Shown here: positions 1-33,850 of the stretch, in pieces
Layout of the letters: each line of letters opens with the position of its first letter
Numbering within the stretch: position 1 is the stretch's first letter
Source: a virus
Lineage: Duplodnaviria; Caudoviricetes
IMG/VR virus record: IMGVR_UViG_3300047290_000102
Coordinates: 1-33,850 of that record
Length of the DNA stretch: 33,850 bases
Direction: 5' to 3' (one strand)
Position numbers and translations under genes: made by a program
Notes under the pieces: generated by a model
Told to the model about the DNA's origin: nothing
The model's database searches: none
The model's input: the letters and a program-made list of their open reading frames with translations, nothing else

Positions 1-102
1 TGGCACTATGACAAGACCGGAGACATTGTAAAAGCAATTGAATTGTTGCTTTTGTCTTGCTCTATCATTGGCATCAGAACTGGCTACCAAAGAATACAAT
101 AA
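1..102 (+). CDS. 3' end of a small membrane protein, possibly a holin (5' truncated by the window)
   Basis: Frame 1 is open from base 1: WHYDKTGDIVKAIELLLLSCSIIGIRTGYQRIQ*, a hydrophobic helix with a short basic tail. It lies near the lysis genes and is followed by a terminator. Confidence 0.45.
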   Translation, partial: WHYDKTGDIVKAIELLLLSCSIIGIRTGYQRIQ

Positions 103-126
103 TTAGTGAAGGTTAAATTAATGGGT

Positions 127-155
127 AAAGCACTTCAGCAATGGGGTGCTTTTTT
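127..155 (+). terminator. Intrinsic terminator
   Basis: Stem AAGCACTTCA / TGGGGTGCTT (two G-U pairs) with a GCAA tetraloop, running into a T tract. Confidence 0.7.
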
Positions 156-161
156 AATACT

Positions 162-719
162 ATGAAAAACACCAAGGACATATTGCTCATTCTTTGCCTC
201 CTATTTGGATTGGCAATTTACCTTGACATAAGGTTTAACAATCCATTCAAATCCAATGACACCATAATTTCAAGAGATAGCATCATTGTCAACCTACCAT
301 CACAAACATTCAACTTGCCACCTTCAGCACCAATAAGTGTGGTCAATAATCAATTGCCTTCCAAGATAGATACTGGGGCAGTTTTAAAGGCTTTCTTTAG
401 TGAAGTGACCTACTTGGATAGTGTGGACAATGATACCCTTAAAATCGTTTTAAAAGAGGTAATAAGTAGAAATGCCATTGTCTCAAGGGAATTGACTCAT
501 CGGCTCAAGATACCCATCACAAAAGTCATTGAAACAACTTATCAACCAAAAGGGATGTTCTATTATGGAGCATCAGCAACATATGGACAAACACTTGGCT
601 TGTCTCCAATGGTAGGCTACAAAAACAAAAGGGAGCAATTTTACTTTGGCTCTTACGATCCAATCAACAAGTCATTCCAAGTTGGTGGGATGTTGCCTAT
701 AAGGAAGTTCAGACCTTGA
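162..719 (+). CDS. Membrane-anchored exported protein, possible lysis accessory (spanin-like)
   Basis: ATG at 162 preferred because 141 lies inside the terminator. N-terminal TM helix (ILLILCLLFGLAIYL); C-terminal amphipathic beta strands (FYYGASATY...FQVGGML). Confidence 0.6.
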   Translation: MKNTKDILLILCLLFGLAIYLDIRFNNPFKSNDTIISRDSIIVNLPSQTFNLPPSAPISVVNNQLPSKIDTGAVLKAFFSEVTYLDSVDNDTLKIVLKEVISRNAIVSRELTHRLKIPITKVIETTYQPKGMFYYGASATYGQTLGLSPMVGYKNKREQFYFGSYDPINKSFQVGGMLPIRKFRP

Positions 720-894
720 AATTAGCCACACACTTTTTGACCTCTATCCAATAGGCTTCATTCTCCTTATCTTGCACTATCATTTTGTCAATGTAATCCA
801 TAGTGTCACCAAAGGATTTCTTGTGCAACAAATCATAATTGTTGAACCAGTTCAAGAAAAACAATTCACTTGCCTTTTCCTTTGGATTAATCAT
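709..894 (-). CDS. Small hypothetical phage protein
   Basis: MINPKEKASELF...YWIEVKK resembles small phage proteins of the MTPKEKA...YWxEVK pattern. The ATG at 894 overlaps the endolysin stop region. Confidence 0.6.
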   Translation of the reverse strand: MINPKEKASELFFLNWFNNYDLLHKKSFGDTMDYIDKMIVQDKENEAYWIEVKKCVANFKV

Positions 895-1351
895 TGTCCA
901 AAACTTTTGGGTGTACAAAGATGCAATTCTTGTAAGACCTTACTCGTAACATAACCTCACCACCATTAGACTGATTAGTTAAAGATGTGTTGCCTTCAAT
1001 GGAATGGAATTGGAATGGCTCAAGATGAGCAAGAAAGATTCCGGTGTGGTCATATCTTTTGTCACCATTGAAATCAAAAAAAACTATATCACCCGGTAGA
1101 GGCTTGGTGGTTATTTCGCCAGTCTTTTTGAAATGTGCCACGGCAGTTTGACAACCGGCAAAGCCTTTGCTGAATCCTATCCTACCAAGGTTTGCATCAG
1201 CTTGGTCATAAACCCAAGAGACAAACATTCCACACCAAGCCAATCCATCCAATCCAAACCATTTACCATACTTGGTCTTGTTTGAATTTCTTGGGAATTC
1301 CTTATATCCCAATTCGCCATTTGCTATCTTCAATATCTTTAGAGCCTTCAT
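887..1351 (-). CDS. CHAP-domain endolysin (peptidoglycan hydrolase)
   Basis: Motifs WCGMFVSWV (catalytic Cys), PGDIVFF, HTGI (catalytic His) and IEGNT. Confidence 0.92.
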   Translation of the reverse strand: MKALKILKIANGELGYKEFPRNSNKTKYGKWFGLDGLAWCGMFVSWVYDQADANLGRIGFSKGFAGCQTAVAHFKKTGEITTKPLPGDIVFFDFNGDKRYDHTGIFLAHLEPFQFHSIEGNTSLTNQSNGGEVMLRVRSYKNCIFVHPKVLDND

Positions 1352-1574
1352 CTACGAAAATAAAAGTTATCTTTTTTTCAAGTCTATTAATCTTATACTT
1401 CAACCTATTCCCATAGTTCCAAAGCCTTCTTTTGTCATAAGGTTTAGCCTCATCTGAATGATACCAAATTTGGAATTCAGCATAATGCTTTTTCAACCTA
1501 TGATACACTTCAAGTGTGTCGGTAGTCTTTTCGCTAAAGGGAATAGGTGGAAGTTCTTTGGGTGTGGCTACCAT
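1302..1574 (-). CDS. Hypothetical protein
   Basis: 90-aa ORF overlapping both neighbours in the leftward unit; no motif recognised. Confidence 0.55.
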   Translation of the reverse strand: MVATPKELPPIPFSEKTTDTLEVYHRLKKHYAEFQIWYHSDEAKPYDKRRLWNYGNRLKYKINRLEKKITFIFVDEGSKDIEDSKWRIGI

Positions 1575-2008
1575 TCAAAGTATGAGTTTTTCCAATTAAG
1601 ATGCACTCCAATGGTTGTCAGCATTGATAGGAAGGTAGTGGATGCCCAAAACCTTTTGCCTCTCTTTTGCTTTTTGATTTCCTTGCTTGTCTCAATTGCC
1701 ATTGCCATATTTTGTGAAGCAAGTGTGTCATTGTATTCTTGCAAGTTCTTCATTTCTCTTTTCAGAGTGGTGATGGCATTCTCTTTTTTTGCATAGTCTA
1801 TATAAAGCAAAGTCAATTCTGCCTTGGCTTTCTTCAGTTCTATACGATCCAAGTCACATTGGTTCAAGTCAGCCATCAACATTTCCATCAATGACTTGGG
1901 TGTATAAACCAAAGTGTCTCCCCAGTAGATGTTATTGGAAAGAGTATCGGTTTGAGAGAATGTTGGTAATGTTTTCAGAAGCAGAACGATTAATAGGATT
2001 TTTTTCAT
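1568..2008 (-). CDS. Exported coiled-coil protein with C-terminal hydrophobic segment (spanin-like candidate)
   Basis: Signal peptide MKKILLIVLLLKTLPTFS|Q, central heptad pattern, basic patch and then FWASTTFLSMLTTIGV. Lies upstream of the endolysin. Confidence 0.6.
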   Translation of the reverse strand: MKKILLIVLLLKTLPTFSQTDTLSNNIYWGDTLVYTPKSLMEMLMADLNQCDLDRIELKKAKAELTLLYIDYAKKENAITTLKREMKNLQEYNDTLASQNMAMAIETSKEIKKQKRGKRFWASTTFLSMLTTIGVHLNWKNSYFEW

Positions 2009-2276
2009 TGCGTTTGTATTTGATGATTGTTAAAGGTTTTTGATTTAGTTCTTGTTGTAACTCATTGCACTTGATAATTAGTTGGGCATTCTCATTTAAG
2101 AGGTCAACCTCTCTTTCATCCCACTTGGTTTTCATTTGCTCCAATTCTTGGAGTCTTTGATAATCGGCAGAGACCGGAGTGGTTACCGATTTCAATTTTT
2201 GGTGCATTCGGTAAGTATTGGCTACCAAGCCAAAGATTACTAATGTCACCACAATGGGCAAAATTCTTTCTTTCAT
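1932..2276 (-). CDS. N-terminally anchored coiled-coil protein (i-spanin/Rz-like candidate)
   Basis: TM helix ILPIVVTLVIFGLVA followed by coiled coil; overlaps the next gene by 77 bp. Confidence 0.6.
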   Translation of the reverse strand: MKERILPIVVTLVIFGLVANTYRMHQKLKSVTTPVSADYQRLQELEQMKTKWDEREVDLLNENAQLIIKCNELQQELNQKPLTIIKYKRNEKNPINRSASENITNILSNRYSFQ

Positions 2277-2288
2277 AAGTTTGATTGT

Positions 2289-3212
2289 TTAAAATGGTAA
2301 GTAATTATTGTAAGTTAGTTTTAATCCTTCATCCAAGGAGGTCTTGTGTGACCATCCAAGTGCATTGAGCTTTGATGAGTCAAGTAATTTTCTTGATGTG
2401 CCATCCGGCATTGATGTGTTGAATTCAAGATATCCAACAAAATTGGTCAACTCCTTTATCTTAAATGCCAATTCCCTCACACTTATTTCTTCACCAGTGC
2501 CTACATTGATGTGCATAGGGTCATCATAATTGCACATCAGAAAGTGCATTGCATCGGCAAGGTCATCCACATAAATGAATTCCCTCAATGGTGTGCCAGT
2601 CCCCCAAACTTCCATTGATTCTTGGTTGTTAGCCTTGGCAATTTGAAATCTATGAATAAGGGAAGCAATGATATGACCATAGTGTTGGTTGAAATTATCC
2701 CCAATCCCATACACATTGCAAGGCATTAGGCTAATGATGTTAGTGCCATACTGGGAGGCATAGGCTTGAGCAAGTTTGATGCCCATAATCTTTGCCAATG
2801 CATAAGGCTCATTGGTTGGCTCAAGATAACCATTCAACAAATATTCTTCTTTGATTGGTTGTGGACAATGCTTTGGATAGATGCAAGAAGAACCAAGCAC
2901 CATTGTCTTTTTCACTCCCCATTTGTGACAAGCACTTATCACATTCAAAAGCATTGTGGCATTGTCATAAAGGAATTCACTTGGGTAGGTATCATTGGCA
3001 AGAATGCCACCAACCTTACCGGCACACATAACAACATAATGTGGTTGGTGTGTGGCAAAGAATGAATCTACAAGATATTTGCTTGTGAGGTCAAGTTGAT
3101 TCCTTGTTGGGACTTGGATCGTTGAATAACCTTCTTTGATTAACAATCTAACATAAGCAGAGCCAACCATTCCATTAGCACCAAGAACAAGAATGCGTGA
3201 ATCCTTTTCCAT
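2289..3212 (-). CDS. fcl: GDP-L-fucose synthase (GDP-4-keto-6-deoxymannose 3,5-epimerase/4-reductase)
   Basis: GANGMVGSA Rossmann motif, AGKVGGILAN, LGSSCIYP, EPTNEPYALAK (YxxxK), VWGTGTPLREFIYVDDLA, PDGTSRK. Confidence 0.97.
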   Translation of the reverse strand: MEKDSRILVLGANGMVGSAYVRLLIKEGYSTIQVPTRNQLDLTSKYLVDSFFATHQPHYVVMCAGKVGGILANDTYPSEFLYDNATMLLNVISACHKWGVKKTMVLGSSCIYPKHCPQPIKEEYLLNGYLEPTNEPYALAKIMGIKLAQAYASQYGTNIISLMPCNVYGIGDNFNQHYGHIIASLIHRFQIAKANNQESMEVWGTGTPLREFIYVDDLADAMHFLMCNYDDPMHINVGTGEEISVRELAFKIKELTNFVGYLEFNTSMPDGTSRKLLDSSKLNALGWSHKTSLDEGLKLTYNNYLPF

Positions 3213-4213
3213 TATCGTGATTCAATTTCAGTTTTAATCATATCCTCAATGAGCATATCAATATCATAAAATGGATGCCATCCAAGTTCATTTCTTATTA
3301 AACTGGAATCCCCAAGGAGTAGGTCAACTTCATTAGGTCGGTAATATTTGTGATTGGTTTGCACTCTTTTCTTCAAACTCACTTGGTCAATGCCTATCAT
3401 ATTGATGCCATCACCTTCCCAATCTAATTTGATGCTGAAGAAATCAAAACACTTGGTAAGGAATTCAAATACTGAAATGGTCACTCCGGTAGCAACAACA
3501 TAATCCTTTGGCTTATAGTTTTGAAGCATCAGCCACATTGCCTTGACATAATCCTTGGAATGTCCCCAGTCCCTTTTTGAATAAAGATTTCCAAGTGTCA
3601 AGAAATCCAACTTGCCAAAGTACATATCAACAAGACCTTTGGTTATTTTCCTTGTTACAAAGGTTTCGCCTCTGCGTGGGGATTCGTGGTTAAATAAGAT
3701 TCCACTAACTGCAAACAAGCCATAAGCCTCCCTATAATTTTTTACCATATGATGGGCAAAGACCTTTGCAACTGCATAGGGTGAAACTGGGTTGAATGGT
3801 GTGGATTCCTTTTGTGGGGTCTCCAAAACCTTTCCAAACATTTCAGATGAACTGGCTTGATAGAACTTGGTATGGGGTGAGTATTTGCGTAAAGTTTCAA
3901 GAATGTTCAAGCATCCAATGGCATCCACTTGGGATGTATAGCAAGGCATAATGAATGAAACAAGCACTTGGCTTTGTGCTGATAGGTTATAACACTCATT
4001 TGGGTTAACCTCAAGAATCACATCCATCACACTTGCCATATCAGTCACATCCCCATAATGCAAATGCAGTTGCTCATAGATATGGTCAATTCTTTGTGTG
4101 TTGAACATTGAGGCTTTCCTAATAACACCGTGGACTTCATATCCTTTTTCAAGAAGCAATTCAGCAAGATACGATCCATCTTGTCCGGTGATACCAAAGA
4201 TTAGTGCTTTCAT
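3212..4213 (-). CDS. gmd: GDP-mannose 4,6-dehydratase
   Basis: GITGQDGSYLAELLL, YQASSSEMFG, SPYAVAK, GILFNHESPRRGETFVTRKIT, RDWGH. The stop overlaps the fcl start. Confidence 0.98.
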   Translation of the reverse strand: MKALIFGITGQDGSYLAELLLEKGYEVHGVIRKASMFNTQRIDHIYEQLHLHYGDVTDMASVMDVILEVNPNECYNLSAQSQVLVSFIMPCYTSQVDAIGCLNILETLRKYSPHTKFYQASSSEMFGKVLETPQKESTPFNPVSPYAVAKVFAHHMVKNYREAYGLFAVSGILFNHESPRRGETFVTRKITKGLVDMYFGKLDFLTLGNLYSKRDWGHSKDYVKAMWLMLQNYKPKDYVVATGVTISVFEFLTKCFDFFSIKLDWEGDGINMIGIDQVSLKKRVQTNHKYYRPNEVDLLLGDSSLIRNELGWHPFYDIDMLIEDMIKTEIESR

Positions 4214-4401
4214 TGTTTGCCTCCTTCTTCATGCCAATCATTAATTGCTTTCCTTAATTCTTTGCTTTCAACCGGAGTGAACTTGTTAAACTCCACACAA
4301 AGGTCAAATCGTTCTTCATCCATTCCACAAGCAAGGAGCAAGACCTTCTTGTTTATACCTTCAGATAAGGCATCAATTATGAGGTCTTGAAGTTTGTTCA
4401 T
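4210..4401 (-). CDS. Small hypothetical protein, possibly HTH-like
   Basis: 63 aa, ATGA-coupled to gmd; helical pattern similar to the upstream gene. Confidence 0.55.
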   Translation of the reverse strand: MNKLQDLIIDALSEGINKKVLLLACGMDEERFDLCVEFNKFTPVESKELRKAINDWHEEGGKQ

Positions 4402-4588
4402 TGATGGCTACTTTAATAATGATGTCTTTATCTATGCGAAGGTGAAAGGCAATTCGCTCCAGTTCATCCATTGTAAAAAGGTATGGTGTCTTAATGGCTT
4501 TATAGAAACGATTCCTTGGGATTTTAGCCACCTTTAAAAGATGCTCTTTCTTCACTCCGGTGCTTGTTATCAGTTCATTTAGTGTCAT
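4373..4588 (-). CDS. Cro/CI-type HTH DNA-binding protein
   Basis: LNELI..GVKKEHLLKVAKIPRNRFY...FTMDELERIA fits the XRE-family helix pattern; first gene after a divergent intergenic region. Confidence 0.65.
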   Translation of the reverse strand: MTLNELITSTGVKKEHLLKVAKIPRNRFYKAIKTPYLFTMDELERIAFHLRIDKDIIIKVAINEQTSRPHN

Positions 4589-4596
4589 AATGGGTG

Positions 4597-4629
4597 TAAA
4601 TATACATCAGTACCCACCATAGTTTTCAA
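4597..4629 (-). promoter_or_regulatory. Putative Bacteroidota-type promoter, leftward
   Basis: Minus strand has TTG, 22 nt, then TATATTTA (one mismatch to TAnnTTTG), ending 8 nt before the ATG at 4588. Confidence 0.45.
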
Positions 4630-4701
4630 CAACCCTCTGATTTTATGTGGCTAAAGTGCTGTAAATGAGCAGAATTGCAATTGTTAAAAAAACATATTGA
4701 T

Positions 4702-4735
4702 TTTGACGCACGGGTACATATTTGTACTATATTTG
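4702..4735 (+). promoter_or_regulatory. Putative Bacteroidota-type promoter, rightward early
   Basis: TTTG at 4702-4705 and TATATTTG at 4728-4735, matching the -33/-7 consensus with slightly long spacing. Confidence 0.6.
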
Positions 4736-4774
4736 CCATATCAAAATCAGTCAAACAATTTAAAACTCTTTGTT

Positions 4775-4963
4775 ATGAACCAATCACTCACTTCCCTAAT
4801 CGTTCTTGCTGAAACTTCAGCCAATGCTAATTCTTCTGCTCTTTTCTGCTTGTCACAAGCAAAGCAATTGTTTTCTTCTGATGAGCAGTCTGCTCGTATG
4901 TGGGCAATTCGCTCACTCAAGTATTCATTGGGTGTTCTTAACCCAATTTTCAAAACTCTCTAA
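4775..4963 (+). CDS. Small early hypothetical protein
   Basis: ATG at 4775 downstream of the promoter, in an A-rich context; 62 aa. Confidence 0.6.
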   Translation: MNQSLTSLIVLAETSANANSSALFCLSQAKQLFSSDEQSARMWAIRSLKYSLGVLNPIFKTL

Positions 4964-4970
4964 TCCAACC

Positions 4971-4989
4971 GGGGGGCTAACAACCCCCC
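4971..4989 (+). other. G6/C6 stem-loop in an intergenic region
   Basis: GGGGGG-CTAACAA-CCCCCC with no following T tract on the plus strand. Confidence 0.55.
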
Positions 4990-5022
4990 ATCACAAAATC
5001 TAAAAACCAAAACAAAAGCAAA

Positions 5023-5166
5023 ATGAACAAGTCACAACTATTCAAAGTCAACTACATTTTCAACGGCAATTCTTATGAGTGCCTCCTTTTAATTTATCCA
5101 AACGATAGGATTGAAAAGATGCTACCAAGTGAGTGCATCATTATGTCAGTTACTGAAATCAAATAA
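5023..5166 (+). CDS. Small hypothetical protein (47 aa, not in ORF track)
   Basis: MNKSQLFKVNYIFNGNSYEC...VTEIK*, preceded by the recurring AAAACAAAAGCAAA leader. Confidence 0.65.
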   Translation: MNKSQLFKVNYIFNGNSYECLLLIYPNDRIEKMLPSECIIMSVTEIK

Positions 5167-5193
5167 TAACACTAAAACAAAAGCAAAATGAAA
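5160..5193 (+). repeat. 34-bp perfect direct repeat, copy 1
   Basis: CAAATAATAACACTAAAACAAAAGCAAAATGAAA, identical to 5349-5382. Confidence 0.9.
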
Positions 5194-5355
5194 ACCTACC
5201 ATAACCATTCAAAATCAAAGTGCATTTGGTACGATTACCGTTTAAGGCTTTGGACACTTCAAATGTTAGATGAGCAAGGCAATCAAATTGATGGTGTGGA
5301 TTATGTGGTTAATCGTATTGATGCCTTCAATTGGTTAAATGAAATAAACAAATAA
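5188..5355 (+). CDS. Small hypothetical protein (55 aa, not in ORF track)
   Basis: MKTYHNHSKSKCIWYD...WLNEINK*; the start lies in repeat copy 1 and the stop in copy 2. Confidence 0.7.
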   Translation: MKTYHNHSKSKCIWYDYRLRLWTLQMLDEQGNQIDGVDYVVNRIDAFNWLNEINK

Positions 5356-5382
5356 TAACACTAAAACAAAAGCAAAATGAAA
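5349..5382 (+). repeat. 34-bp perfect direct repeat, copy 2
   Basis: Identical to 5160-5193. Confidence 0.9.
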
Positions 5383-5496
5383 TACCTACTACTAACCTTT
5401 GTGGCATTCGCTCTTGTGGAACAAGACCACTTTATTGCCGGAACTATTGTATTTGTATACTGCATCTATAACCTTTTAAAACTCCAAGCAAAATGA
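5377..5496 (+). CDS. Small hydrophobic protein (39 aa, not in ORF track)
   Basis: MKYLLLTFVAFALVEQDHFIAGTIVFVYCIYNLLKLQAK*; ATGA overlap with the next gene. Confidence 0.6.
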   Translation: MKYLLLTFVAFALVEQDHFIAGTIVFVYCIYNLLKLQAK

Positions 5497-5684
5497 ACAT
5501 TGAAGAAATGAATGCACGAATCACAAGTGGTCAAGTGATAAGGCTTGACTGCAATGAAACTATCCGTGGAGGTATTAACCTTTCACAATTGGACAAGTTA
5601 AGGCACTACTGGGCAGAACACGGCTTTCCAAATGGCAATGACATTGATGAGGCAAAAAAGAAAGTGAGGGTGAAGAATGGTTAA
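5493..5684 (+). CDS. Hypothetical protein
   Basis: 63 aa, coupled to both neighbours, AAGCAAA-ATG start context. Confidence 0.6.
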   Translation: MNIEEMNARITSGQVIRLDCNETIRGGINLSQLDKLRHYWAEHGFPNGNDIDEAKKKVRVKNG

Positions 5685-5877
5685 TATGTATGTCTACCAC
5701 CCAACCAATGGAACAAGTGTTGATTTGGAATGTGAATGGGATGAGAATGGATTTCCTTATTGGTATAAAATAATTTACATATGGGATGCCACTGGTCACA
5801 TTGAATTGGACAAGTCCACTTATGACCTATCTTGGATGACCTTTGATTATATTGAAGAATTTGGAGAAAAATGTTAA
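5677..5877 (+). CDS. Acidic hypothetical protein
   Basis: 66 aa, rich in D/E and aromatic residues; overlaps the previous stop. Confidence 0.55.
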   Translation: MVNMYVYHPTNGTSVDLECEWDENGFPYWYKIIYIWDATGHIELDKSTYDLSWMTFDYIEEFGEKC

Positions 5878-5897
5878 ACCATAATACCAAAAGCAAA

Positions 5898-6167
5898 ATG
5901 ACACCGGAAGAAATAAAAGACAACATCAAGCAACTTGACTTCAATGCCTACAAACAAATTGTGGACATTGCATTAATCCACAACCTACCACACCAAGTGG
6001 TTGACCAATTGTGTGACATAGTAAATGAATCCAATATGCGAAACTTCTACATTGGATCGTATAGTACTGCCAACAACATATTGACCAATGAAGAATTCAA
6101 TAGGATTTATTCTGAAAAATTAATTGAGAAAGTAAATAAGTATAACCAAAAAAATCAAAAGCAATGA
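5898..6167 (+). CDS. Hypothetical protein
   Basis: ATG at 5898 follows the CAAAAGCAAA leader; ATGA-coupled to recT. Confidence 0.6.
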   Translation: MTPEEIKDNIKQLDFNAYKQIVDIALIHNLPHQVVDQLCDIVNESNMRNFYIGSYSTANNILTNEEFNRIYSEKLIEKVNKYNQKNQKQ

Positions 6168-7027
6168 GCAACATTCAAACAACAACCAGTTCAATTGACC
6201 TCCTAAAGAGTGAGGCAGTACAAACCAAGTTCCAAGAATTACTTGGAAGCAAAGCCAAAGGATTTGTGACATCAGTTATGTCAGCCATAAGCACAAACCC
6301 ATCTTTAAAGAATGCTGACCCCAATTCAGTTTATATGAGTGCAATGATGGGGGCAGTTCTTGACCTACCCATTAATCAAAACCTTGGATTTGCGTATATA
6401 GTACCATATGGTGACAAGGCACAATTCCAAATAGGTGTGAAGGGATTGGTTCAACTGGCACAAAGAAGTGGGCAATTCAAAACAATCTCCAGTTGTCCGG
6501 TATATGATGGGCAGTTGACTTCACAAGACCCATTGAAAGGATTTGAATTCAATTGGGAGGCTAAAAGAAGCGACAAGGTGATTGGCTTTGTGGCTTACTT
6601 CTCTTTGCTCAATGGCTTTGAGAAAACGCTTTATATGTCATTAGATGAGGTCACAACGCACGGCAAGAAGTATAGCAAGACCTTTGGCAACAAATATGGG
6701 GTTTGGCAAACTGATTTCAACGCAATGGGTGAAAAGACCGTATTGAAAAGACTGCTTTCAAAATATGCACCACTATCCATTGAAATGCAGAAGGCAATTA
6801 TTTCTGACCAAAGTGTTATAAACAATGCTGAAACCTTGGATGTGTCTTATGTTGATAATGAAGTGACAAAAGAAGACAATGAAAGGGATAGGCTCATTCA
6901 ACTCATTGGGGCATCCACATCAGTTGAGCAACTTGACAAACTTGGTAAGCACATCAATGAGGGAGATAATGAACTTATGGACATTTATCTTTCAAAGATG
7001 TATGAACTGAAAGGAGGTAACAAATGA
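6164..7027 (+). CDS. recT: RecT-family single-strand annealing protein
   Basis: LDLPINQNLGFAYIVPY, AQFQIGVKGLVQLAQRSGQ, WQTDFNAMGEKTVLKRLLSKYAPLS. Confidence 0.92.
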   Translation: MSNIQTTTSSIDLLKSEAVQTKFQELLGSKAKGFVTSVMSAISTNPSLKNADPNSVYMSAMMGAVLDLPINQNLGFAYIVPYGDKAQFQIGVKGLVQLAQRSGQFKTISSCPVYDGQLTSQDPLKGFEFNWEAKRSDKVIGFVAYFSLLNGFEKTLYMSLDEVTTHGKKYSKTFGNKYGVWQTDFNAMGEKTVLKRLLSKYAPLSIEMQKAIISDQSVINNAETLDVSYVDNEVTKEDNERDRLIQLIGASTSVEQLDKLGKHINEGDNELMDIYLSKMYELKGGNK

Positions 7028-7689: not shown

Positions 7690-7904
7690 GAAAATATAAA
7701 TATTGGACAACAACTGAAAAAAAGTTTGTTGAAGACAATTTGATGTTAACTGACAAGCAACTTGCCAAGGCACTTGGAAGGGAATGGAAGAATGTTCACG
7801 CATTCAGAAGAAGACTTGGCTTAAAGAAGCCATCAGAATTCTTTGTAATGGTCAAGAAAGACAATGTAAAATTAGGTGGTGGCAGACCTATAAAAAGAAA
7901 CTGA
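7686..7904 (+). CDS. Small basic HTH-like protein
   Basis: WTTTEKKF...TDKQLAKALGR...V...RRRLGL pattern. Confidence 0.65.
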   Translation: MRKYKYWTTTEKKFVEDNLMLTDKQLAKALGREWKNVHAFRRRLGLKKPSEFFVMVKKDNVKLGGGRPIKRN

Positions 7905-7905
7905 T

Positions 7906-10987: not shown

Positions 10988-11076
10988 TTTTGCAAAGGTG
11001 CTATGGTGTTGAAAAGAATGGTGTTAACCATATGACTTTAGTGTGTGAATTTACATTAATGGTTAAACAATTCATA

Positions 11077-11084: not shown

Positions 11085-11088
11085 CAAA

Positions 11089-11369: not shown

Positions 11370-11370
11370 G

Positions 11371-23007: not shown

Positions 23008-23010
23008 GAT

Positions 23011-25364: not shown

Positions 25365-27717
25365 ACACCAACCATTCTTTCCCGACCCCGATTCACCAAA
25401 CAACTACAATTGTGGTACTGAAAGGTATTGCCATCCATTGAATGGTGGTGACACTTTTATGACTCAATTTTATCAGACTCCTTGCAATGACAATGAGATT
25501 CTTGACCCGGAGTTTGATGACTATTCATTGGGTGCTGAATTGACTGACAATGGGGATTTCATTTCAACAAGTTTGAATCAATGGAATAGTGGTGCAACTC
25601 CATTGTCCACAACACTTGGAGTGCTTGTCAATGGATGGACTGGTGCAAACCCAACAAGAGTGGAACATATTAGTGGTTATACCGATTCATTGAATCAAAC
25701 ATCTTTGGGTTTTGTTGTTGGTGAGGCTTATCAAATAACCATAGAATTCACAAGAACAAGTGGAAGCATTGAGGTTGTGCTTGGTGATGGGGTTGAAGAA
25801 ACAAAGAGTGGAGCATTGGAAGTTGGAGGCACATATACTTTCAACCTAATGTACTTGGACAATTTCAATGACATTGTGCAAGTAAGACCAACTACTGACT
25901 TTGTGGGTTATGTGAATTCAATTAGTGTCAAGCAAATCAATTATGATTATTGGGTTGCGAATGGTTCTTGGACTTTTGATAATGGCTTTGCTTGTCATAT
26001 TGAAGGGACAATTGGAGACTTGGTAGATACTGCCCCAAATTACATTGATGCCGGTGGTTATTATGTAGCATCAATTACCGTTTCAAGTTATGTCCAAGGC
26101 TCAATTAATTTATTTGTTTCTGACATATTGGTTGGAATAATTTTCGCCAATGGCACTTATACCTATTATGCATTTCCATCATTGAACGGAACAATGAAGG
26201 TGGAGGCATCAAGTGACTTCATTGGATGCATTAGTTTGCCTTCAGTCTATGAGTTGAGGGATGACTATACTGCATTCATTATTGATGAGAATGGCAACCA
26301 ATATGATGTTTCAAATTATATTGAATATTATGAGCAATATGTGACATTGAAATTTGACTTTGCTACCGTTGGGAATTATGAGTTACCAAGTGGATGTTAT
26401 AGTGTCAAGATGTATGACCAATGTATTATTCAAAGTGATAATCTTGTTTGGAATGGAGATTTTGTTGATGGCTTTACTGATTGGTATAAGAATAATGGGA
26501 ATGCCCCATATAGCATCACTGGTGATGAGTTGACCATAACATTTGACCCCTTTAGTTATGGCAGTACCAATTTCATAACAAACGGAGATTTCAGTAGTGG
26601 AACTACTGGATGGACATTTGGAACTGGATGGTCATTGGTTAGTGGAAAAGCAAGACATACTCCCGGTAATACTGCGACTTTAAGTCAAACATTAACATTA
26701 CCCACACCACCACTTCCCGCAGTTGGTTATAATTACTTTGTAAAATTCACTATTTCAAATCATACCATTGGAACGGTTAATATTGGATTGGGTACTGGTT
26801 CAAAAGTATACGGTGGAAATGATGATTTCATTATATTCTTGCCTTCCGGTGCTTCTGGAAATGTCAATTTAACCATAACACCTTCAAGTAATTTTGATGG
26901 TGATATTGATGATTTTGGAGTTATAATAGTTAATTTATCATCCTCAATATTATTGAATAACAAGATTCAACCATTAATAACTCCGGGAACATATCAAGTT
27001 GAATGGGATATTATTTCATCTACATTATCAAATATTAGAACAAGAGCAGTTTTAGTAGCAGCTCAAGGAAATGTGCCTTTACAAAATACGGCTGGTTCTT
27101 ATAGCTATACTCAAACATATACTCAAAATGGTAGTTATGTTCAAATCCTTGCTGATTTTACAAAAACCAATTCTTTTTCATCAAATGTTTATGGAACAAA
27201 AGGCTCAATTACGGTAGATAATATTAGTCTTAAAAAAATAGAACCTTTTGAGGCTACCTATGAAACTGAATGTCTTTCATACAATGAGAATGGATGGGAT
27301 AAGACCAAGATGATTGTGGCTTGGTGTGACCAACCTTCATTTGGTTTTGAGTTTGCCAATACTGGATTCAAGTTGCAACAAAGGGCATTGATACGATCCA
27401 TCAACCCAACCTATCCAAATCAAAAGAACATCCAACAAATGGGTAGTGGAAATGCAAGGATGGTTTATGCAGAGATTGAAAAATATTGGGAATTACATAC
27501 CGACTTTGCCTCTGAAACATTCCACGATGCTATGGCAGTCCAATTGAGTTGTGACCATTTGCAAATTGGAGACACACAAGGAAACGGAAAAGAATACATA
27601 ACCAATGGTGATGAATACATACCAAGTTGGCAAGGTGATGGAACATATAGTTTGGCAACTGCGACCTTTGAAGTTAGAATAAAAGAAAAAGGTCAGATAT
27701 TCAATAGACACATTTAA
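25345..27717 (+). CDS. Tail structural protein with repeated carbohydrate-binding-like modules
   Basis: Repeated NGDF...W starts (LTDNGDF, LVWNGDF, FITNGDF) and F(V/D)Gx(V/I) ends, typical of CBM4/9-like beta sandwiches. Confidence 0.62.
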   Translation: MPLIHNKHQPFFPDPDSPNNYNCGTERYCHPLNGGDTFMTQFYQTPCNDNEILDPEFDDYSLGAELTDNGDFISTSLNQWNSGATPLSTTLGVLVNGWTGANPTRVEHISGYTDSLNQTSLGFVVGEAYQITIEFTRTSGSIEVVLGDGVEETKSGALEVGGTYTFNLMYLDNFNDIVQVRPTTDFVGYVNSISVKQINYDYWVANGSWTFDNGFACHIEGTIGDLVDTAPNYIDAGGYYVASITVSSYVQGSINLFVSDILVGIIFANGTYTYYAFPSLNGTMKVEASSDFIGCISLPSVYELRDDYTAFIIDENGNQYDVSNYIEYYEQYVTLKFDFATVGNYELPSGCYSVKMYDQCIIQSDNLVWNGDFVDGFTDWYKNNGNAPYSITGDELTITFDPFSYGSTNFITNGDFSSGTTGWTFGTGWSLVSGKARHTPGNTATLSQTLTLPTPPLPAVGYNYFVKFTISNHTIGTVNIGLGTGSKVYGGNDDFIIFLPSGASGNVNLTITPSSNFDGDIDDFGVIIVNLSSSILLNNKIQPLITPGTYQVEWDIISSTLSNIRTRAVLVAAQGNVPLQNTAGSYSYTQTYTQNGSYVQILADFTKTNSFSSNVYGTKGSITVDNISLKKIEPFEATYETECLSYNENGWDKTKMIVAWCDQPSFGFEFANTGFKLQQRALIRSINPTYPNQKNIQQMGSGNARMVYAEIEKYWELHTDFASETFHDAMAVQLSCDHLQIGDTQGNGKEYITNGDEYIPSWQGDGTYSLATATFEVRIKEKGQIFNRHI

Positions 27718-27721
27718 TGAT

Positions 27722-27729
27722 TATATTTG
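27722..27729 (+). promoter_or_regulatory. Bacteroidota -7 promoter box
   Basis: TATATTTG in the intergenic gap before the 27812 gene. Confidence 0.6.
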
Positions 27730-27811
27730 CAACAAGGTGTCAAAGTGGGTGAGACAAAAAGTAATCCCTTAACCAACTTAAAACAACTTAACACCAAAAT
27801 CTCTTAAAAAA

Positions 27812-28363
27812 ATGGGATGTCTTAATTACAATTGTGCTACTCTCACCGAACACGAAGTAAGCACCTTGGCTTGTAAAGGGCCGCGACCAGCCGGTATTTC
27901 TTCAGCCGTATTTATTCTTTGTTCTTCTACTCTTGTTGACCCAAGTGATGGAACTGAAATCAATGCTCTCATTACTTCCGGTGATGCGAAGTTGGTTGAG
28001 AACATTCGTATGGGTTTAGGTAGTGGTGAAGTAACACAATCACCAAAGGTGACTGCTTGTGGTCTGCCACAAACTCTTTATGTGACCTATAGTGGTAACA
28101 TTACCGACTATTCTTTCAACCAACAAAATATGGAGTTTTGGACAACCTTGACAAGTGGTTACACCATTAGTGGAATCATTGCAAGGCTATGCCCAAAGAG
28201 TGGCTTTGATGACGAGTCATTGTGGATGGATGGTGAAGTTTCATTTAGTGGTTCACCAGTCATTGCTGACACCGATGAAGAAGCTGCAAATTTTGCAATT
28301 ACCTATCAATACAAAGGAACGGTTTCTTTGATTCCAACACCTACTGGAGTATTTAGTGCATAA
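27812..28363 (+). CDS. Probable major tail (tube) protein
   Basis: 183 aa, acidic, S/T/G-rich beta pattern, own promoter box and long A-rich leader. The call rests on size and context only. Confidence 0.5.
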   Translation: MGCLNYNCATLTEHEVSTLACKGPRPAGISSAVFILCSSTLVDPSDGTEINALITSGDAKLVENIRMGLGSGEVTQSPKVTACGLPQTLYVTYSGNITDYSFNQQNMEFWTTLTSGYTISGIIARLCPKSGFDDESLWMDGEVSFSGSPVIADTDEEAANFAITYQYKGTVSLIPTPTGVFSA

Positions 28364-28372
28364 AAATTTTGA

Positions 28373-30598
28373 ATGGATAAGGGGATTATCCTACTTGCTT
28401 TCGGAAAGAGAGGTTATGGGTTTATGGCTTATAACCTCTCCCTTTCCATTAAGCATTATACTCCAAACCTACCCATCCATTTAATTGCAACAAAAGAAGT
28501 TTTAAAGGAAGTAACTGACCATTCAGTTTTTGATAGTATTGAATGGTTGGAAAGTGTGCCAAGTGACCCCGGTCTTTTCAAGGCTCAAATAGGAAGAAAC
28601 CTACCATTTGAACATAATCTTTTTTTGGATGTTGATGCCATAGCATTGCAATCTCTTGAGCCATTATTTCAAAGGCTAATTGATAGTGATGTGCATTATG
28701 CTACTTACATCCACGATGTTTATGACATCAACTCACCCAACATCTTGCCAATGATGTTTTGGGCATATAGGGAAGACATATGGCAACACTATGGCTTTGA
28801 TGCCAACACAAAGTTTCCGGCAACACAATCAAGCATCCAATACATTAGAAAGTGTGCCAAGACTAATGAGCTTTATGACTTATTCAATGAGGCTTTTGCC
28901 AATCCGATCCCATTGGAAAGGTTAAGAAATAAGTGGGGTGGTGGTCAACCGGATGAACTATATTTAAATGTCGCTCTTGCCAAGCAAGGTGGCTTCAATC
29001 ACATAGGACAAGACTCCATTTGGTTTGGCAATGATGGTTCACGCAGACCACACGAACTTGTTTACTCTCATTATTTGCTTTCCTACTTTGGATATAGGAA
29101 TAACATTAGACCAATCTATTGGGAGTATTATGATAAGGTCTTGCAAAAGATGGCAAGTGCCAAAGGAATGAGGCACATTTTCAAAAGCCATCTACTGAAA
29201 GGTGATAAGATTGCAAATGTTCAAAATGATAGGACTAAAAATGCAAGGTCAAACATTGGAACAAATTTGATAAGACCCGATGCCAAGAAATATTCAAAGG
29301 GAGACAAACGCATTATTCTTTTTACTCATTATTATGAGCAAAAATTTTCAGACCGACAAAGGGAATTAAGAAAGGTTATGGAGGCAAACATTAATTGCCC
29401 ATCCATTGACCTCATTGTTAACCTTGGAGTGCCTTATTCAAGTCATAAAGTGGTGAATATTGAATATGAGAGACCTACTTACGCAGACTTTTGCAAGGAG
29501 GCACAAAGGATTGATGCAGATTTTTACATAATTGCCAATACTGATGTCTATTTCACAAGCGAGATTGAGCAAATCAATGAACTGGAAATGGATGGAAAGG
29601 CACTTTGCTTGTCAAGATGGGATGTTCAATCCAATGGTTATGCCAAGCTATTCAATTATGAGTGGTCACAAGACACTTGGATTTTCAAGGGCAAACCTCC
29701 ATTGATGGAAAAGTGTGATTTCACAATGGGACTTCCGGCTTGTGACAATAGATTTGCATATGAACTTGCACAAAAGGGGATTCAACCAATCAATCCATCA
29801 TTGAGCATCAAGACTTATCACTTGCATATAACCAACAAAAGAAACTATAAGGAGCAAGATAGGTTACAAGGTCAAGTGATGCCAGTACAAGTTGAAGATT
29901 GGTCAAAATATAGAAGAAAAAAGTTGTTGATTCATCAGCCGGGTAAGGTTGGTGACATCATTATTTGTTTACCCATTGCAGAGCATTACCACAAGTTGGG
30001 ATGGATCGTTGAATGGATGTGTCCGATTCAATATCATTCACTTTTTAAATATGTGGATTATGTCAAACCGATTGTTTCAAAGGTTTCTGCTTACGATAAA
30101 GTCATTGATTTGTCTTTTGGAATCATTACCAATAGTGAAGTGCATAGGTTGTGGCTCAAGCAAAGGAACAATCTTGATTCGTTTGTTGAACTTAAATACC
30201 AACTTGCTTCAGTACCTTTATTGGAATGTCGCAATCTTAATTATACACGGAATGTACACTTGGAGAATTCTCTTTATACTGATTTGGGGTTGGATTCTAT
30301 CAATGATTATATCCTTGTGCATAGTGGTAGTGATTATGGTTCTTCCATTGATGTTTCTTCTGACAAGACTATTGTTCATTTTAAACCAATTGAAGGCAAG
30401 AACTATCAGATTTTTGATTGGAGAAAAGTGATTGAGAATGCTTCAGAGATTCATTGCATAGATAGTTCATTATGTAACTTTGTAGATAGCCTCCCATTTA
30501 CAAGAGGTGAGTTGCATTATTACATAACCGACAAAGTGCCTCACAAATCTGACCGTACTTTGCTCACAAAAAAATGGTTGGTCTATGATTTGGTATGA
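28373..30598 (+). CDS. Multidomain glycosyltransferase (two GT-A-like plus one GT-B/GT9-like domain)
   Basis: Domain 1: LFLDVD (DxD)...QPDE. Domain 2: IIANTDVYF, LSRWD, SQDTW, CDN, HLH. Domain 3: GKVGDII...LVH...IHCIDSS. Confidence 0.8.
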   Translation: MDKGIILLAFGKRGYGFMAYNLSLSIKHYTPNLPIHLIATKEVLKEVTDHSVFDSIEWLESVPSDPGLFKAQIGRNLPFEHNLFLDVDAIALQSLEPLFQRLIDSDVHYATYIHDVYDINSPNILPMMFWAYREDIWQHYGFDANTKFPATQSSIQYIRKCAKTNELYDLFNEAFANPIPLERLRNKWGGGQPDELYLNVALAKQGGFNHIGQDSIWFGNDGSRRPHELVYSHYLLSYFGYRNNIRPIYWEYYDKVLQKMASAKGMRHIFKSHLLKGDKIANVQNDRTKNARSNIGTNLIRPDAKKYSKGDKRIILFTHYYEQKFSDRQRELRKVMEANINCPSIDLIVNLGVPYSSHKVVNIEYERPTYADFCKEAQRIDADFYIIANTDVYFTSEIEQINELEMDGKALCLSRWDVQSNGYAKLFNYEWSQDTWIFKGKPPLMEKCDFTMGLPACDNRFAYELAQKGIQPINPSLSIKTYHLHITNKRNYKEQDRLQGQVMPVQVEDWSKYRRKKLLIHQPGKVGDIIICLPIAEHYHKLGWIVEWMCPIQYHSLFKYVDYVKPIVSKVSAYDKVIDLSFGIITNSEVHRLWLKQRNNLDSFVELKYQLASVPLLECRNLNYTRNVHLENSLYTDLGLDSINDYILVHSGSDYGSSIDVSSDKTIVHFKPIEGKNYQIFDWRKVIENASEIHCIDSSLCNFVDSLPFTRGELHYYITDKVPHKSDRTLLTKKWLVYDLV

Positions 30599-30818
30599 AT
30601 TCAATATAAGCATCTATGACCAAAAACTTGAAGACCTTGGTGTCTCAACATATAGGAATGCCAAGGCAATGGTCAACTTGAATGACATCCAACATTTTTC
30701 CCAAACCTACATTCACGATACTGACACCGAATGCACATTGATAAACTTTGTAAATGGAGATTCAATGGTTGTCAATGAATCATATGACCAAGTAAAAAGG
30801 ATAATGAGATGCAAATAG
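30585..30818 (+). CDS. Hypothetical protein
   Basis: 77 aa overlapping both neighbours; VNLNDI...I.F.NG...VNESYDQV pattern. Confidence 0.6.
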   Translation: MIWYEFNISIYDQKLEDLGVSTYRNAKAMVNLNDIQHFSQTYIHDTDTECTLINFVNGDSMVVNESYDQVKRIMRCK

Positions 30819-31447
30819 CACAACACATAATGCCCAATGGAATGAGTGCAAAGGCTGAATTCTGCTTTGCCATAACTGAACTTATAAGGAATTTCAGACT
30901 CAAAAAAATTGTGGAGACTGGAAGTTATATGGGTGAAGGCACAACCAAAGCCATAGCCGATGCAATGCTTGGAGATGAAATGGTTTATTCCATTGAAGTA
31001 AATCCAAGATACTATGAGATAGCAAGAAAGAAACACAAGAACACAAGCATCAATTTCCTACTTGGCTTGTCAGTTAAAAAACCATTGTTGCCTACTGACT
31101 TCACTTGGGATGTCCCTTCAAACATTGTCATTGACCACCTTGACCATAATAGGGAAATACTTTACAAGCAAGAAGTGAGTTTCAATGTGCCGGACAATAT
31201 GCTTGACTTTGCATTGAGCAAAATGAATTACCAACCCGATTTAGTGATATTGGATTCAGCCGGTCATATGGGATTGGTTGAATTCAAGGAGTTGATGAAA
31301 CTTGCAGAAGCACCTTTCTTTCTTGCCTTGGATGACACCAATCATATCAAGCATTATGAAAGTGTAAAGTTGCTTGAGGCAATGGATGTGGATTTGATAT
31401 TTGAAACTGAAGAAGGCTTTGGCAGTAGGATTTATTACATTAAATGA
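30809..31447 (+). CDS. Class I SAM-dependent methyltransferase (probable sugar O-methyltransferase)
   Basis: IVETGSYMGEGTT (motif I), VYSIEVN, LVILDSAGH, LDDT; no DNA-MTase PC or DPPY motif. Confidence 0.8.
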   Translation: MQIAQHIMPNGMSAKAEFCFAITELIRNFRLKKIVETGSYMGEGTTKAIADAMLGDEMVYSIEVNPRYYEIARKKHKNTSINFLLGLSVKKPLLPTDFTWDVPSNIVIDHLDHNREILYKQEVSFNVPDNMLDFALSKMNYQPDLVILDSAGHMGLVEFKELMKLAEAPFFLALDDTNHIKHYESVKLLEAMDVDLIFETEEGFGSRIYYIK

Positions 31448-32223
31448 GATACGCATTCACCATAGTGTTCAATGGTAAACACCATTTGTTGAATCAAAGG
31501 TTCATTGACCTTATGGTTGGATCGTTTGACAAATGGATTATTGTGGAAGGTTTTTCTTCCAATGGTGGTTCAACTTCTTGGTGTCATAACTTGAACATCC
31601 AAAGGAATTCAACTGATGGCACATTGGAACTTCTTGCAGAGTTAATGGAAAAGCATTCAAACATCATTGTTCATTCAAGAAAGAATGGTTGGAAAAGCAA
31701 AGATGAGCAAGTGAATAAGTCAATGGAGTTGTTGCAAGGCAGTCCAAGTGGATGGCTATGGCAAGTTGATGTGGATGAGTTATGGCAAGAAGGTGATTTT
31801 GCAAAGGCAGAATCAATGATGGAACAAGATGTTTCAGTTGCCGGTGCTTTTCAGTTCCATCATTTGCTTTGCCAAGATTACAAGGGAAGGCAATTGGTTG
31901 GAAAAGGTGAATGGGGTAGCAATTGGCACACACGATTGTGGTGGTATGAAGGTCAAGATTTCATAAGCCACGAACCTCCATTGATGAAAGGTCAGAAAAC
32001 CATCAAGCAACTGCCTCAAAAGTATCACCACTATTCTTATTATTTTGAGCAAGATGTTCTTTTCAAGTCCAAATATTACAAAGGTTATGCATCTTTGTAT
32101 AGGAATTGGATAAGATTGCAGAAGAAAGCCTTTAACTTTCCCATAAGCACAAGGGAATTGTTTGGCAATTCAAGTAGTATTAACCATAAGAATTCAACCA
32201 TTACCCACTATGAAAGTTTGTAA
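31444..32223 (+). CDS. GT-A fold glycosyltransferase (GT2-like)
   Basis: IIVEG...STDGTLE, WLWQVDVDELW (DxD), HYSY; ATGA-coupled to the methyltransferase. Confidence 0.8.
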   Translation: MRYAFTIVFNGKHHLLNQRFIDLMVGSFDKWIIVEGFSSNGGSTSWCHNLNIQRNSTDGTLELLAELMEKHSNIIVHSRKNGWKSKDEQVNKSMELLQGSPSGWLWQVDVDELWQEGDFAKAESMMEQDVSVAGAFQFHHLLCQDYKGRQLVGKGEWGSNWHTRLWWYEGQDFISHEPPLMKGQKTIKQLPQKYHHYSYYFEQDVLFKSKYYKGYASLYRNWIRLQKKAFNFPISTRELFGNSSSINHKNSTITHYESL

Positions 32224-32278
32224 GCCGTGCCAAGGTGGTAGACCAAGACCCACCATCAAACCTAAACCAAAAAGTTAA
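32210..32278 (+). CDS. Possible 22-aa basic CxxC peptide
   Basis: MKVCKPCQGGRPRPTIKPKPKS* bridges the GT stop and the portal ATG (1-nt gap). Confidence 0.35.
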   Translation: MKVCKPCQGGRPRPTIKPKPKS

Positions 32279-32279
32279 G

Positions 32280-33850
32280 ATGTTAACTCCAGAATTCATA
32301 TATCAACTTGTCACTTCAGTAGTGGACAAGAAGAAGTCAAGTGCAAAGACCAAACCAAAATTGGGAAGTCAATGGTCTAATGCAAGTGTTGATGACAATC
32401 ATTTGCCGGAGTATTACCAAGGCTATACCTTGGCAGTAAAATGGTTGCAACAAATAAAGGTTCACGCACAAAAGGGAGTTTATCCTTACGCATTGTTTGA
32501 AAAACAAGCTCCCAATCAAACTCCTATGGAGGCTGAATATGTTCGTGCCAATTACAAGCAGACAACCATACAAGTGTTCAAAGATATGGTTGACACATAT
32601 GGCAGAGCATACCACGAAAACAACTGGAGCATTCAATTCACTCCCGATGCCGACCAATATGTGAATTCAAGTCAGACCCTACAACAATACATTGACCAAG
32701 ACTTTCCGGAATATGGATCGTTGGACAACTTTGTTTTCACCTTTCTGCCTCCTTTGAAAATGATGGATGCAATGGGAGTGGTTGCAGTTATGCCATATGA
32801 GATTCCAGTTATTGAAAAAGATGGTGAGCAAATCATAGACCCCGACCAACTTGTTGAACCATTCACCAAGTTCTACCATACAACAAGAGTCTTGGCTTAT
32901 GCACCGGAGTATTGTGTTATTGAGTCAGAAGAATTGTCTCCAGTAGATTACAATGGTAAGGAGATATATGATGGATTGGTTTTCTACATCTTTGATGAAG
33001 AATGGATTTATAAAGCCATTCAAGTAGGTAAGAAAGTTGACTACACATTTGAATTGGTTGAGTGGTTTAATCATAATACCGGTAAACTTCCAGTCAAAAG
33101 AGTTGATGGTATAGCCATTCAGATTGATGAGACAATGATGCAACAAAGTCCATTCCTTTATGCTACTGACATATTGGATGAGGTGCTTTTGGATAGTGCA
33201 TTGTTGAGAGGCATCAAACCAACTTGCACATATCCTTTTAGGGTAATGGTTGGTGAGTATTGTGAATTCAGCATAAGGGACAATGGAGAGCAGTTGGTTT
33301 GTGACAATGGCTACCATTATAGAAGTGATGGCACAAAGTCAATGTGTCCGGAGTGTAATGGGACTGGTGCAAAAGATAGGGTTTCACCTTATGGAACTTT
33401 ATTAATTAAGCCACAAAAAGGAGCAAATCAAGGAGACACCGTTTCACCGGACAAGGCAATGTACTATGCAAGTCCATCAGTTGAGACACCAACTTTCCTA
33501 CGCAATGAGATTGCCCAAGGGATGGCAATGGCTTATGATATTTTGCATCTAAAGAAAACCGACAACAAGGTTCAAGGTGGTAGCAATATGACTGCTACCG
33601 AAGTTGCTTCTGACCAAAAGAGTTTGATTGCCGGTATCAAACAAAACTGCCTTCAGTTATTTGATATGTATGAATGGTGCATTGATATGATTGGCTTGAT
33701 GCGTTATGGTGTCAATTATAGAAAGCCAGTCATCAAGAGACCAGTCAATTATGACTTCTATATGGAGTCAGATTATATGGCTCAAATAAATGAGGCTATC
33801 ATTTCAAAGCAACCACCTTTTGTAATTCAGTCCATCATTTATAAGTATTT
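32280..33850 (+). CDS. Portal protein (3' truncated by the window; absent from ORF track)
   Basis: Long open frame MLTPEFIYQLV... with no stop seen. Contains FNHNTGKLPV and MTATEV portal-like motifs and an inserted C..C..CPECNGTG zinc finger. Confidence 0.75.
   Translation, partial: MLTPEFIYQLVTSVVDKKKSSAKTKPKLGSQWSNASVDDNHLPEYYQGYTLAVKWLQQIKVHAQKGVYPYALFEKQAPNQTPMEAEYVRANYKQTTIQVFKDMVDTYGRAYHENNWSIQFTPDADQYVNSSQTLQQYIDQDFPEYGSLDNFVFTFLPPLKMMDAMGVVAVMPYEIPVIEKDGEQIIDPDQLVEPFTKFYHTTRVLAYAPEYCVIESEELSPVDYNGKEIYDGLVFYIFDEEWIYKAIQVGKKVDYTFELVEWFNHNTGKLPVKRVDGIAIQIDETMMQQSPFLYATDILDEVLLDSALLRGIKPTCTYPFRVMVGEYCEFSIRDNGEQLVCDNGYHYRSDGTKSMCPECNGTGAKDRVSPYGTLLIKPQKGANQGDTVSPDKAMYYASPSVETPTFLRNEIAQGMAMAYDILHLKKTDNKVQGGSNMTATEVASDQKSLIAGIKQNCLQLFDMYEWCIDMIGLMRYGVNYRKPVIKRPVNYDFYMESDYMAQINEAIISKQPPFVIQSIIYKY

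Follow-up and report, generated by a model that had tools for sequence, protein, structure and literature searches.

Even spacing of CCAG, CCGG and GATC in a tailed-phage contig purged of many other short words

Why does a phage genome that has lost dozens of short words almost completely keep three others, and keep them at regular distances? This question is raised by a linear tailed-phage contig of 33,850 bases (G000; IMG/VR record IMGVR_UViG_3300047290_000102), which has a GC content of 38% and a completeness of 82% according to CheckV, and which is called the window here. The retained words are CCAG, found mostly as CCAGT, CCGG, and GATC, found as CGATC (Table 1). The analysis showed the purge itself and the even spacing of the retained words; it also showed that the spacing of each word depends neither on the strand nor on the remaining two, and that it outlasts the turnover of individual sites.

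The word content of the window was compared with 150 codon shuffles that kept the proteins and the codon usage. An initial annotation had described more than 70 CCAGT/ACTGG sites, five other CCAG sites, no CAGG/CCTG, frequent CCGG and a series of nearly absent palindromes, and the counts bear this description out. CCAGT accounts for 88 of 93 CCAG sites, and the five exceptions lie exactly where they had been listed, with CCAGA at 32289 (+) and 26854 (−), CCAGC at 27887 (+), 19891 (−) and 27091 (−), and no CCAGG. CAGG does not occur at all (118 expected from the shuffles), CATG, GGCC and CGCG occur once each, and CTAG, TCGA, ACGT and GCGC are absent; the shuffles gave expectations of 40 for CCAGA, 23 for CCAGC, 22 for CCAGG, 74 for CATG, 90 for TCGA and 50 for CTAG. 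ACAG/CTGT, overlooked in the annotation, is present 3 times against 144 expected. Altogether 73 minimal avoided words of 4–6 letters were obtained, each below 27% of its expectation; CTNAG and GGACC, both wholly missing, are among them. Codon bias does not account for the depletion, which is strand-symmetric, goes beyond codon and protein constraints and is of the restriction-avoidance type, with CCGG and CCAGT as special words, as had been proposed. The avoided palindromes presumably match restriction enzymes; for CAGG, ACAG and CCAGA no matching enzyme was identified.

The codon shuffles predicted 39 CCGG and 65 CCAGT sites, compared to 88 observed for each. GATC is itself depleted, with 24 sites against 93 expected, and all 24 of these are CGATC, 23 of them in the form CGATCC. 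When a null aware of the avoided words was used, CGATCC was found 23 times against about 3, an 8-fold excess, and it alone is clearly enriched among the retained words.

Spacing, on which the annotation had not remarked, was screened for 2,419 words of 3–8 letters with 12–300 copies each in the window. GATC/CGATC and CCGG came at the top of the evenness ranking, with CCAG 14th and CCAGT 26th. The GATC gaps range from 605 to 3143 bases with a mean of 1394 and a coefficient of variation (CV) of 0.42, and a spacing as even as this was obtained in 6 of 1,000,000 random draws. The corresponding figure was 46 for CCGG and 10,337 for CCAGT (p 0.010), the latter signal being weak in the window alone and stronger in relatives. 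A fitted null that kept the proteins, codon use, 4-mers and avoided words gave CVs of 0.89, 1.09 and 0.98 for CGATCC, CCGG and CCAGT, compared to the observed 0.43, 0.68 and 0.78; because the numbers of CCGG and CCAGT sites are fixed by this null, only its spacing results were considered. Long gaps were also rarer than in a fitted Strauss pair-repulsion model, with 4 CCGG gaps above three times the mean against about 11, and 2 CCAGT gaps against 6–9, in a rough comparison of 8 samples per setting. No C-rich halos were seen, the C fraction being 0.17–0.23 around the sites and 0.18–0.21 around a control word.

The same spacing was found in a clade of relatives (G001, G002, G003/G004/G006, L001, L027 and L105) that are 72–86% identical to the window where aligned, and from which CAGG is absent wherever counted. 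In four genomes of 73–81% identity, evenness was scored for 100 4-mers and 382 5-mers: the top three places among the 4-mers go to CCAG, GATC and CCGG, and the top two among the 5-mers to CCAGT and CGATC. The three series are mutually independent in the clade, and CCAG pooled with CCGG was no evener than shifted controls in 6 of 6 genomes. The two orientations of a word fill each other's gaps: for CCAGT none of 3,000 shifts was as even in 4 of 7 contigs, with L001 an exception to the pooling result, and for CGATC p was at most 0.02 in 4 of 5. Eight of the 18 GATC sites of G002 are CGATCT or CGATCA, and the constant part is therefore CGATC. Most sites are private to one genome, in all reading frames (for CGATC, 15 shared and 48 private), and the private sites avoid the shared ones with p values of 2.5e-4, 2.7e-5 and 1.5e-5, from pairs that are not independent, a property of none of six control words. 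Density, rather than individual sites, is conserved in the clade. G007, a terminase relative that is 86% complete, has CCGG at rank 1 and CCAG at rank 3 of 135 for evenness.

Other words vary within the clade. G001, L027 and L105 have many CATG sites (3.7–5.2 per kb), a word that is purged in the window and in L001. These three contigs and G002 also tolerate CCAGC, which is evenly spaced in G001. GAATTC, found 36 times in the window against 12–15 expected, shows random spacing (CV 1.14) and is missing from both G003 and G004; changes that remove the avoided GAACTC may feed its excess.

Outside the clade, 74 dereplicated loci of at least 8 kb were assembled from 108 loci found through methylase, terminase and RecT searches, of which the two largest scans kept 80 of 558 and 80 of 578 matches. 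Across these 74 loci CCAG takes first place for evenness among 133 4-mers, followed by GATC in third and CCGG in thirteenth place; twelve control words scored between −0.1 and +7.8, compared to −6.85 for CCAG. The CCAG signal is confined to 64 loci, mostly IMG/VR and JGI contigs, and is not seen in the 10 that were set apart as gut-like or other. Against codon shuffles, CCAG is even across 63 loci (p 3e-8) and GATC across 46 (p 0.003), and in the 64 loci short and long gaps are both depleted. The flank of the word varies, with 27 of 28 CCAG sites in L131 being CCAGG and 19 of 20 in L037 being CCAGA. Because CCAG is even across further loci and kept in other flanks, it looks retained rather than targeted. 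Twelve control phages were scored as well, six with Bacteroidota hosts and seven cut to their first 40–50 kb; 11 of them had no even CCAG (z −1.2 to +2.4), and Croceibacter phage P2559Y showed even CCGG (z −2.3). The twelfth control, Flavobacterium phage tant8-1 (MN812239.1, L225-L226), contains 0 CCAG/CTGG, 211 GATC and 159 CCGG in 40,000 bases.

The initial annotation had explained the pattern as avoidance of a single CCWG/CCDG-like target, with CCAGT and CCGG exempted by methylation. The avoidance and the special status of the two motifs stand; the rest of this explanation is not supported. CCAG, CCGG and CCTG behave as separate words, and in the 64 loci CCAG is even while CCWG and CCDG are not. 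A special meaning of CCAGT as a 5-mer finds no support, since the flank varies around a constant core, as in L131 and L037. A neutral exemption should leave the protected sites at random, yet they are evenly spaced, and CGATCC exceeds the avoidance-aware null; some force therefore acts on distance.

We favor, with slightly less than even confidence, a mechanism in which host enzymes mark CCAG, CCGG and GATC and a DNA-scanning defence treats a long unmarked stretch as foreign. Of the known chemistries, a phosphorothioate (PT) introduced by a Dnd, Ssp or BREX type 4 system fits best; this assignment is tentative and takes the larger share of the confidence, with a methylation-based equivalent making up the rest of this proposal. 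Through the purge the phage would evade restriction enzymes present in its host range. Each retained word would be costly because some hosts, or some flanks, would expose it to cutting, such that only avoidance-compatible flanks (CCAGT, CGATCC) would survive and redundant neighbours would be lost, and it would also bring a benefit set by the distance to the next site, such that long gaps would be refilled. A cost per site combined with a benefit from coverage fits the short-range deficit, the CGATCC excess and the shortage of long gaps alike, and the absence of CCAG from the 40,000 bases of tant8-1 supports the cost side. A translocating reader predicts coverage that is independent of orientation, which is what the clade shifts, the 64 loci and the gap tests gave. 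The reported PT motifs include C*AG, C*CA, C*CGG, G*ATC as well as G*AGC (PMC11931770), PT spacing is proposed to be relevant to self-recognition (PMC8053081, PMC9646914), DndFGH translocates and is impeded by PT (PMC11662687, PMC10853773), BREX type 4 brings PT systems to the Bacteroidota (PMC12914056), and a GATC-type Dnd system is functional in laboratory strains (PMC10470545). GATC and CCGG are thus themselves reported PT words, while CCAG only contains C*CA and C*AG.

Several results weigh against host marking. GATC and CCGG are common methylase sites, so their match to PT motifs is not specific, and CCAG was not found as a PT consensus in the accessible PT-motif literature. In the clade, neither the reported PT 3-mers CCA and CAG nor the words GAAC and GAGC show even spacing. 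PT is present on 10–17% of sites (PMC11662687, PMC12914056), which should blur a spacing of 0.4–1.4 kb. With the avoidance-aware count null, the 88 CCGG sites compare to 57–80 expected, an excess of 1.1–1.5-fold only, and the 88 CCAGT sites to 100–112, which is no enrichment. Even spacing is not universal in the clade: it is lacking for CCGG in G003 (p 0.14) and G006 and for CCAGT in the short L105 (n=11), and the G003/G004/G006 lineage has almost lost GATC, with 0–1 copies. Conservation of single sites is modest (ranks 38/128, 73/436 and 170/1,231). Isolated sites are retained slightly more often, no more so than sites of the control word GCAGT, and replacement near a lost site gave p 0.026 for CGATC but p 0.011 for GCAGT, with CCGG and CCAGT not significant. 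G007 is not methylase-free, as it encodes an SNF2-type helicase fused to an N6/N4 methylase (L206:2147-4444). The scan of genomes for a host returned a single terminase match of 35%, and no host, defence gene or modification was seen; PF11751 had no match in the genome with this terminase, nor did the controls give one. DUF4007 was present in 1 of 21 genomes sampled, a figure that carries no weight here.

Other explanations were weighed on the same evidence. That the three words are targets of enzymes requiring two nearby sites, from which near pairs have been removed, is unlikely. Some GATC and CCGG cutters do need two sites, the pair deficits are short-range (about 300–400 bases for CCAGT and 600 for CGATC), CCAGT is at or below its neutral count, and some phages, such as tant8-1, purge CCAG fully. 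Repulsion could not, however, produce the CGATCC excess, long gaps were rarer than under the Strauss model in 4 of 4 tests, and 142 CCAGT and 148 CCGG pairs closer than 300 bases are left in four genomes in which other words were driven to zero. A shield provided by the phage's own multispecific C5 cytosine methylase, making CCAGT, CCGG and CGATC neutral exemptions, predicts random spacing, and G007 has the spacing with no tblastn match to the C5 methylase of the window; we consider it quite unlikely. The attraction of this explanation lies in the three modules of the window methylase facing three words, a tempting match that did not hold up genome-wide. In its favor, both GATC cytosines of CGATCC fall in CC or CG steps. 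Two weak leads concern module C: the 6 clade contigs that keep CGATC have it, while it was deleted, in a single event, from the lineage without GATC, and it goes with less CCGG depletion (42 vs 17 loci, p 0.004, 1 of 30 tests). In the 64 loci, however, no module was associated with any 4–6-mer beyond chance (best p about 6e-5 among about 2,700 words and 14 modules), nor with evenness; L013 and L027 are 93.5% identical and have the same word pattern with only one module in common, and a preceding C is equally common at GATC whether module C is present (0.162) or absent (0.175). Methylation may still decide which flank survives, but action of this methylase on the words would not account for their spacing.

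The words could also be docking or self sites read by a phage factor, for example a DNA-binding protein or the nuclease whose gene follows that of the methylase. The predicted PD-(D/E)XK gene accompanies the methylase gene in the clade. However, the 9144–9626 protein has no tblastn match in G007 or other terminase relatives, G007 is even nonetheless, and CCAG is even across many unrelated loci, making such a factor improbable; at 82% completeness the window may lack a relevant gene. Mismatch repair directed by the sites, as GATC directs it in E. coli, could lower mutation nearby and leave new sites to arise mainly in gaps, yielding enrichment and regular spacing with no selection. This is highly improbable, given that divergence did not rise consistently with distance in 23 tests on 8 genome pairs (z −1.4 to +1.8, with negative values for the closest pairs). 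A bias in codons, dinucleotides or protein repeats can practically be discounted: the avoidance-aware model reproduces much of the CCGG and CCAGT counts, but the zeros and the spacing emerge from neither the codon shuffles nor the fitted nulls, and sites are found in every frame and on either strand.

Further candidates were rejected. One motif of the form CCRG or CCDG lacks complementarity between CCAG and CCGG, CCRG scoring like CCAG alone and CCDG not being even. Chi-like or priming sites do not apply, as the orientations are not separate series and are more even when pooled in most contigs and in 58 other loci. Type III (head-to-head) restriction fails because orientation switches occur as expected, and both inverted arrangements as well as direct pairs are depleted. 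CCAGT pairs on opposite strands seemed additionally depleted in the clade, a signal that was not seen in 43 other loci. The Dpd 7-deazaguanine system has the target CxGCxG (PMC10164549), which none of the three words fits.

Restriction-site avoidance is known in phage and prokaryote genomes (PMC4687349), and the window resembles it in the near-total loss of palindromes of 4–6 bases and of asymmetric words on both strands beyond codon bias. It differs in keeping three words evenly spaced, one of them 8-fold enriched. The PT defence systems (DndABCDE-FGH/DndI, SspABCD-E/FGH and BREX type 4) share the use of short motifs, including G*ATC and C*CGG, and recognise self from the presence of a mark; unlike the window pattern they are host-encoded, and no dnd, ssp or brx Pfam family was found among 41 window open reading frames (ORFs) or 18 extra ORFs of relatives. 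HIP1 of cyanobacteria likewise contains GATC, occurs in excess, is subject to selection and has a non-random distribution, but it is one palindromic octamer of host chromosomes with periods of 10–90 kb (PMC5861425), whereas the phages carry three words of 4–5 bases at 0.4–1.4 kb and have purged other GATC contexts; CGATCG, as in a HIP1-type repeat, occurs 0 times in the window and clade loci. The CCDG recognition of LpnPI-type enzymes (PMC6329791) would cover CCAG, CCGG and CCTG; the three behave independently, however, with CCTG purged, evenness of CCAG and of CCGG each by itself, and none for pooled CCDG. No literature on phages that keep such words evenly spaced, or are shaped by site coverage, was found in a search mostly outside subscription journals. 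The presence of three independent series in one genome, the turnover with conserved spacing and the recurrence of CCAG as the core are new.

How PT systems separate self from foreign DNA with 10–15% of sites marked is described as an open question, to which spacing is a proposed and unproven answer (PMC8053081, PMC11662687). If host marking is correct, these phage genomes would record the PT self-recognition rule as it operates in nature, naming the motifs (CCAG, CCGG, GATC) and giving the distances. Avoidance would then have a counterpart in which phages gain by keeping certain host sites, and spacing statistics could expose unknown host modification systems from viral sequence alone. In its widest form, which is possible but doubtful, many aquatic phages would have evolved a regular lattice of host-modified words, with other targets purged, and so be licensed by defences that read mark density; CCAG/CTGG would be a widespread undescribed modification site, probably a phosphorothioate, of aquatic Bacteroidota, and gap sizes in the phages would show how far each system reaches. 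Whatever the mechanism, a strand-independent regular spacing of CCAG over dozens of unrelated loci calls for an explanation.

Table 1. Word series and genes of the window. The boundaries of the methylase modules were read from alignments.
Feature	Position	Strand	Remarks
GATC, 24 sites (all CGATC, 23 CGATCC)	657..32719	13 on +, 11 on −	All reading frames; at 657, 1846, 3117, 4173, 6055, 7487, 8092, 9224, 10365, 11255, 13246, 13921, 15568, 16600, 18235, 20887, 21836, 23454, 24252, 27395, 28906, 30004, 31520, 32716
CCGG, 88 sites	17..33634	Both (palindrome)	Mean gap 386, largest 1251, CV 0.68
CCAGT/ACTGG, 88 sites	79..33745	40 on +, 48 on −	Mean gap 387, CV 0.78
RecT and exonuclease genes	6164..7689	+	Upstream of methylase
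C5 cytosine methyltransferase, 413 aa	7906..9147	+	Modular variable region; PF00145, E 2e-45
Three exchangeable modules	~8521-8964	+	A ~8521-8673, B ~8674-8826, C ~8827-8964
Remnant of fourth module	~8965-8988	+
Predicted PD-(D/E)XK nuclease, 160 aa	9144..9626	+	Directly 3' of methylase; Atlas feature hits 0.97
Terminase large subunit	14703..16040	+	Used to find relatives

The proteins encoded in the window include a terminase, RecT, an exonuclease, DnaB, an endolysin, GDP-fucose genes and the C5 methylase. The window is from an uncultured, probably freshwater phage, and two freshwater metagenome runs that contain nearly all window words may be its source. Contigs from a public run are identical to the window in 8 listed pieces (5164–20000), and as this run may be the source they give no independent confirmation. 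The top cultured matches of the methylase, at 40–44%, are in phages of Bacteroides, Phocaeicola and Croceibacter, and a Bacteroidota host is therefore likely for the window phage, judging by these sequence matches.

The catalytic residues P73-C74 and E135-N136-V137 of the methylase are invariant in 15 homologues, as is QNRxR, and its modules are probably target-recognition domains. The Bacillus phages SPR, phi3T and rho11s encode multispecific C5 methyltransferases with several modules on one core. The window enzyme has the same arrangement of one catalytic core with exchangeable modules in a variable region; its family differs in belonging to another host group, in its much larger module library and in not being predictive of spacing. 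Across this large family of phage C5 methylases (window, loci L026-L184), modules of at least 18 types are shuffled among at least 113 variable regions, and near-identical phages exchange entire module sets. The gene for the predicted nuclease adjoins that of the methylase in the clade contigs covering the region, and 4 close homologues were found. The nuclease had no Pfam or PHROG match; PF24579 appeared in two of the three Atlas features shown for it (14% and 87% of members).

At 2289-4213 (−) there are genes for GDP-mannose dehydratase and for GDP-fucose-synthase-like proteins, and a glycosyltransferase-like gene stands beside a putative portal in the block at 28373-32223 (+); the sugar genes together with the glycosyltransferase-like gene possibly serve virion glycosylation. 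Between divergent gene blocks, at 4992-5382, there are three direct repeats of 37 bases, at distances of 165 and 189 bases from one to the next, which all end in AAAATGAA. The replication-initiator gene contains four tandem 11-base copies at 11695-11749 that resemble iterons. The otherwise rare or special words GGCC, CCGC, CGCG, CCAGC and CCGG are clustered at 27876-27894 in the K-G-P-R-P-A-G codons of the 27812-28363 gene, a cluster that is in part forced by Gly-Pro.

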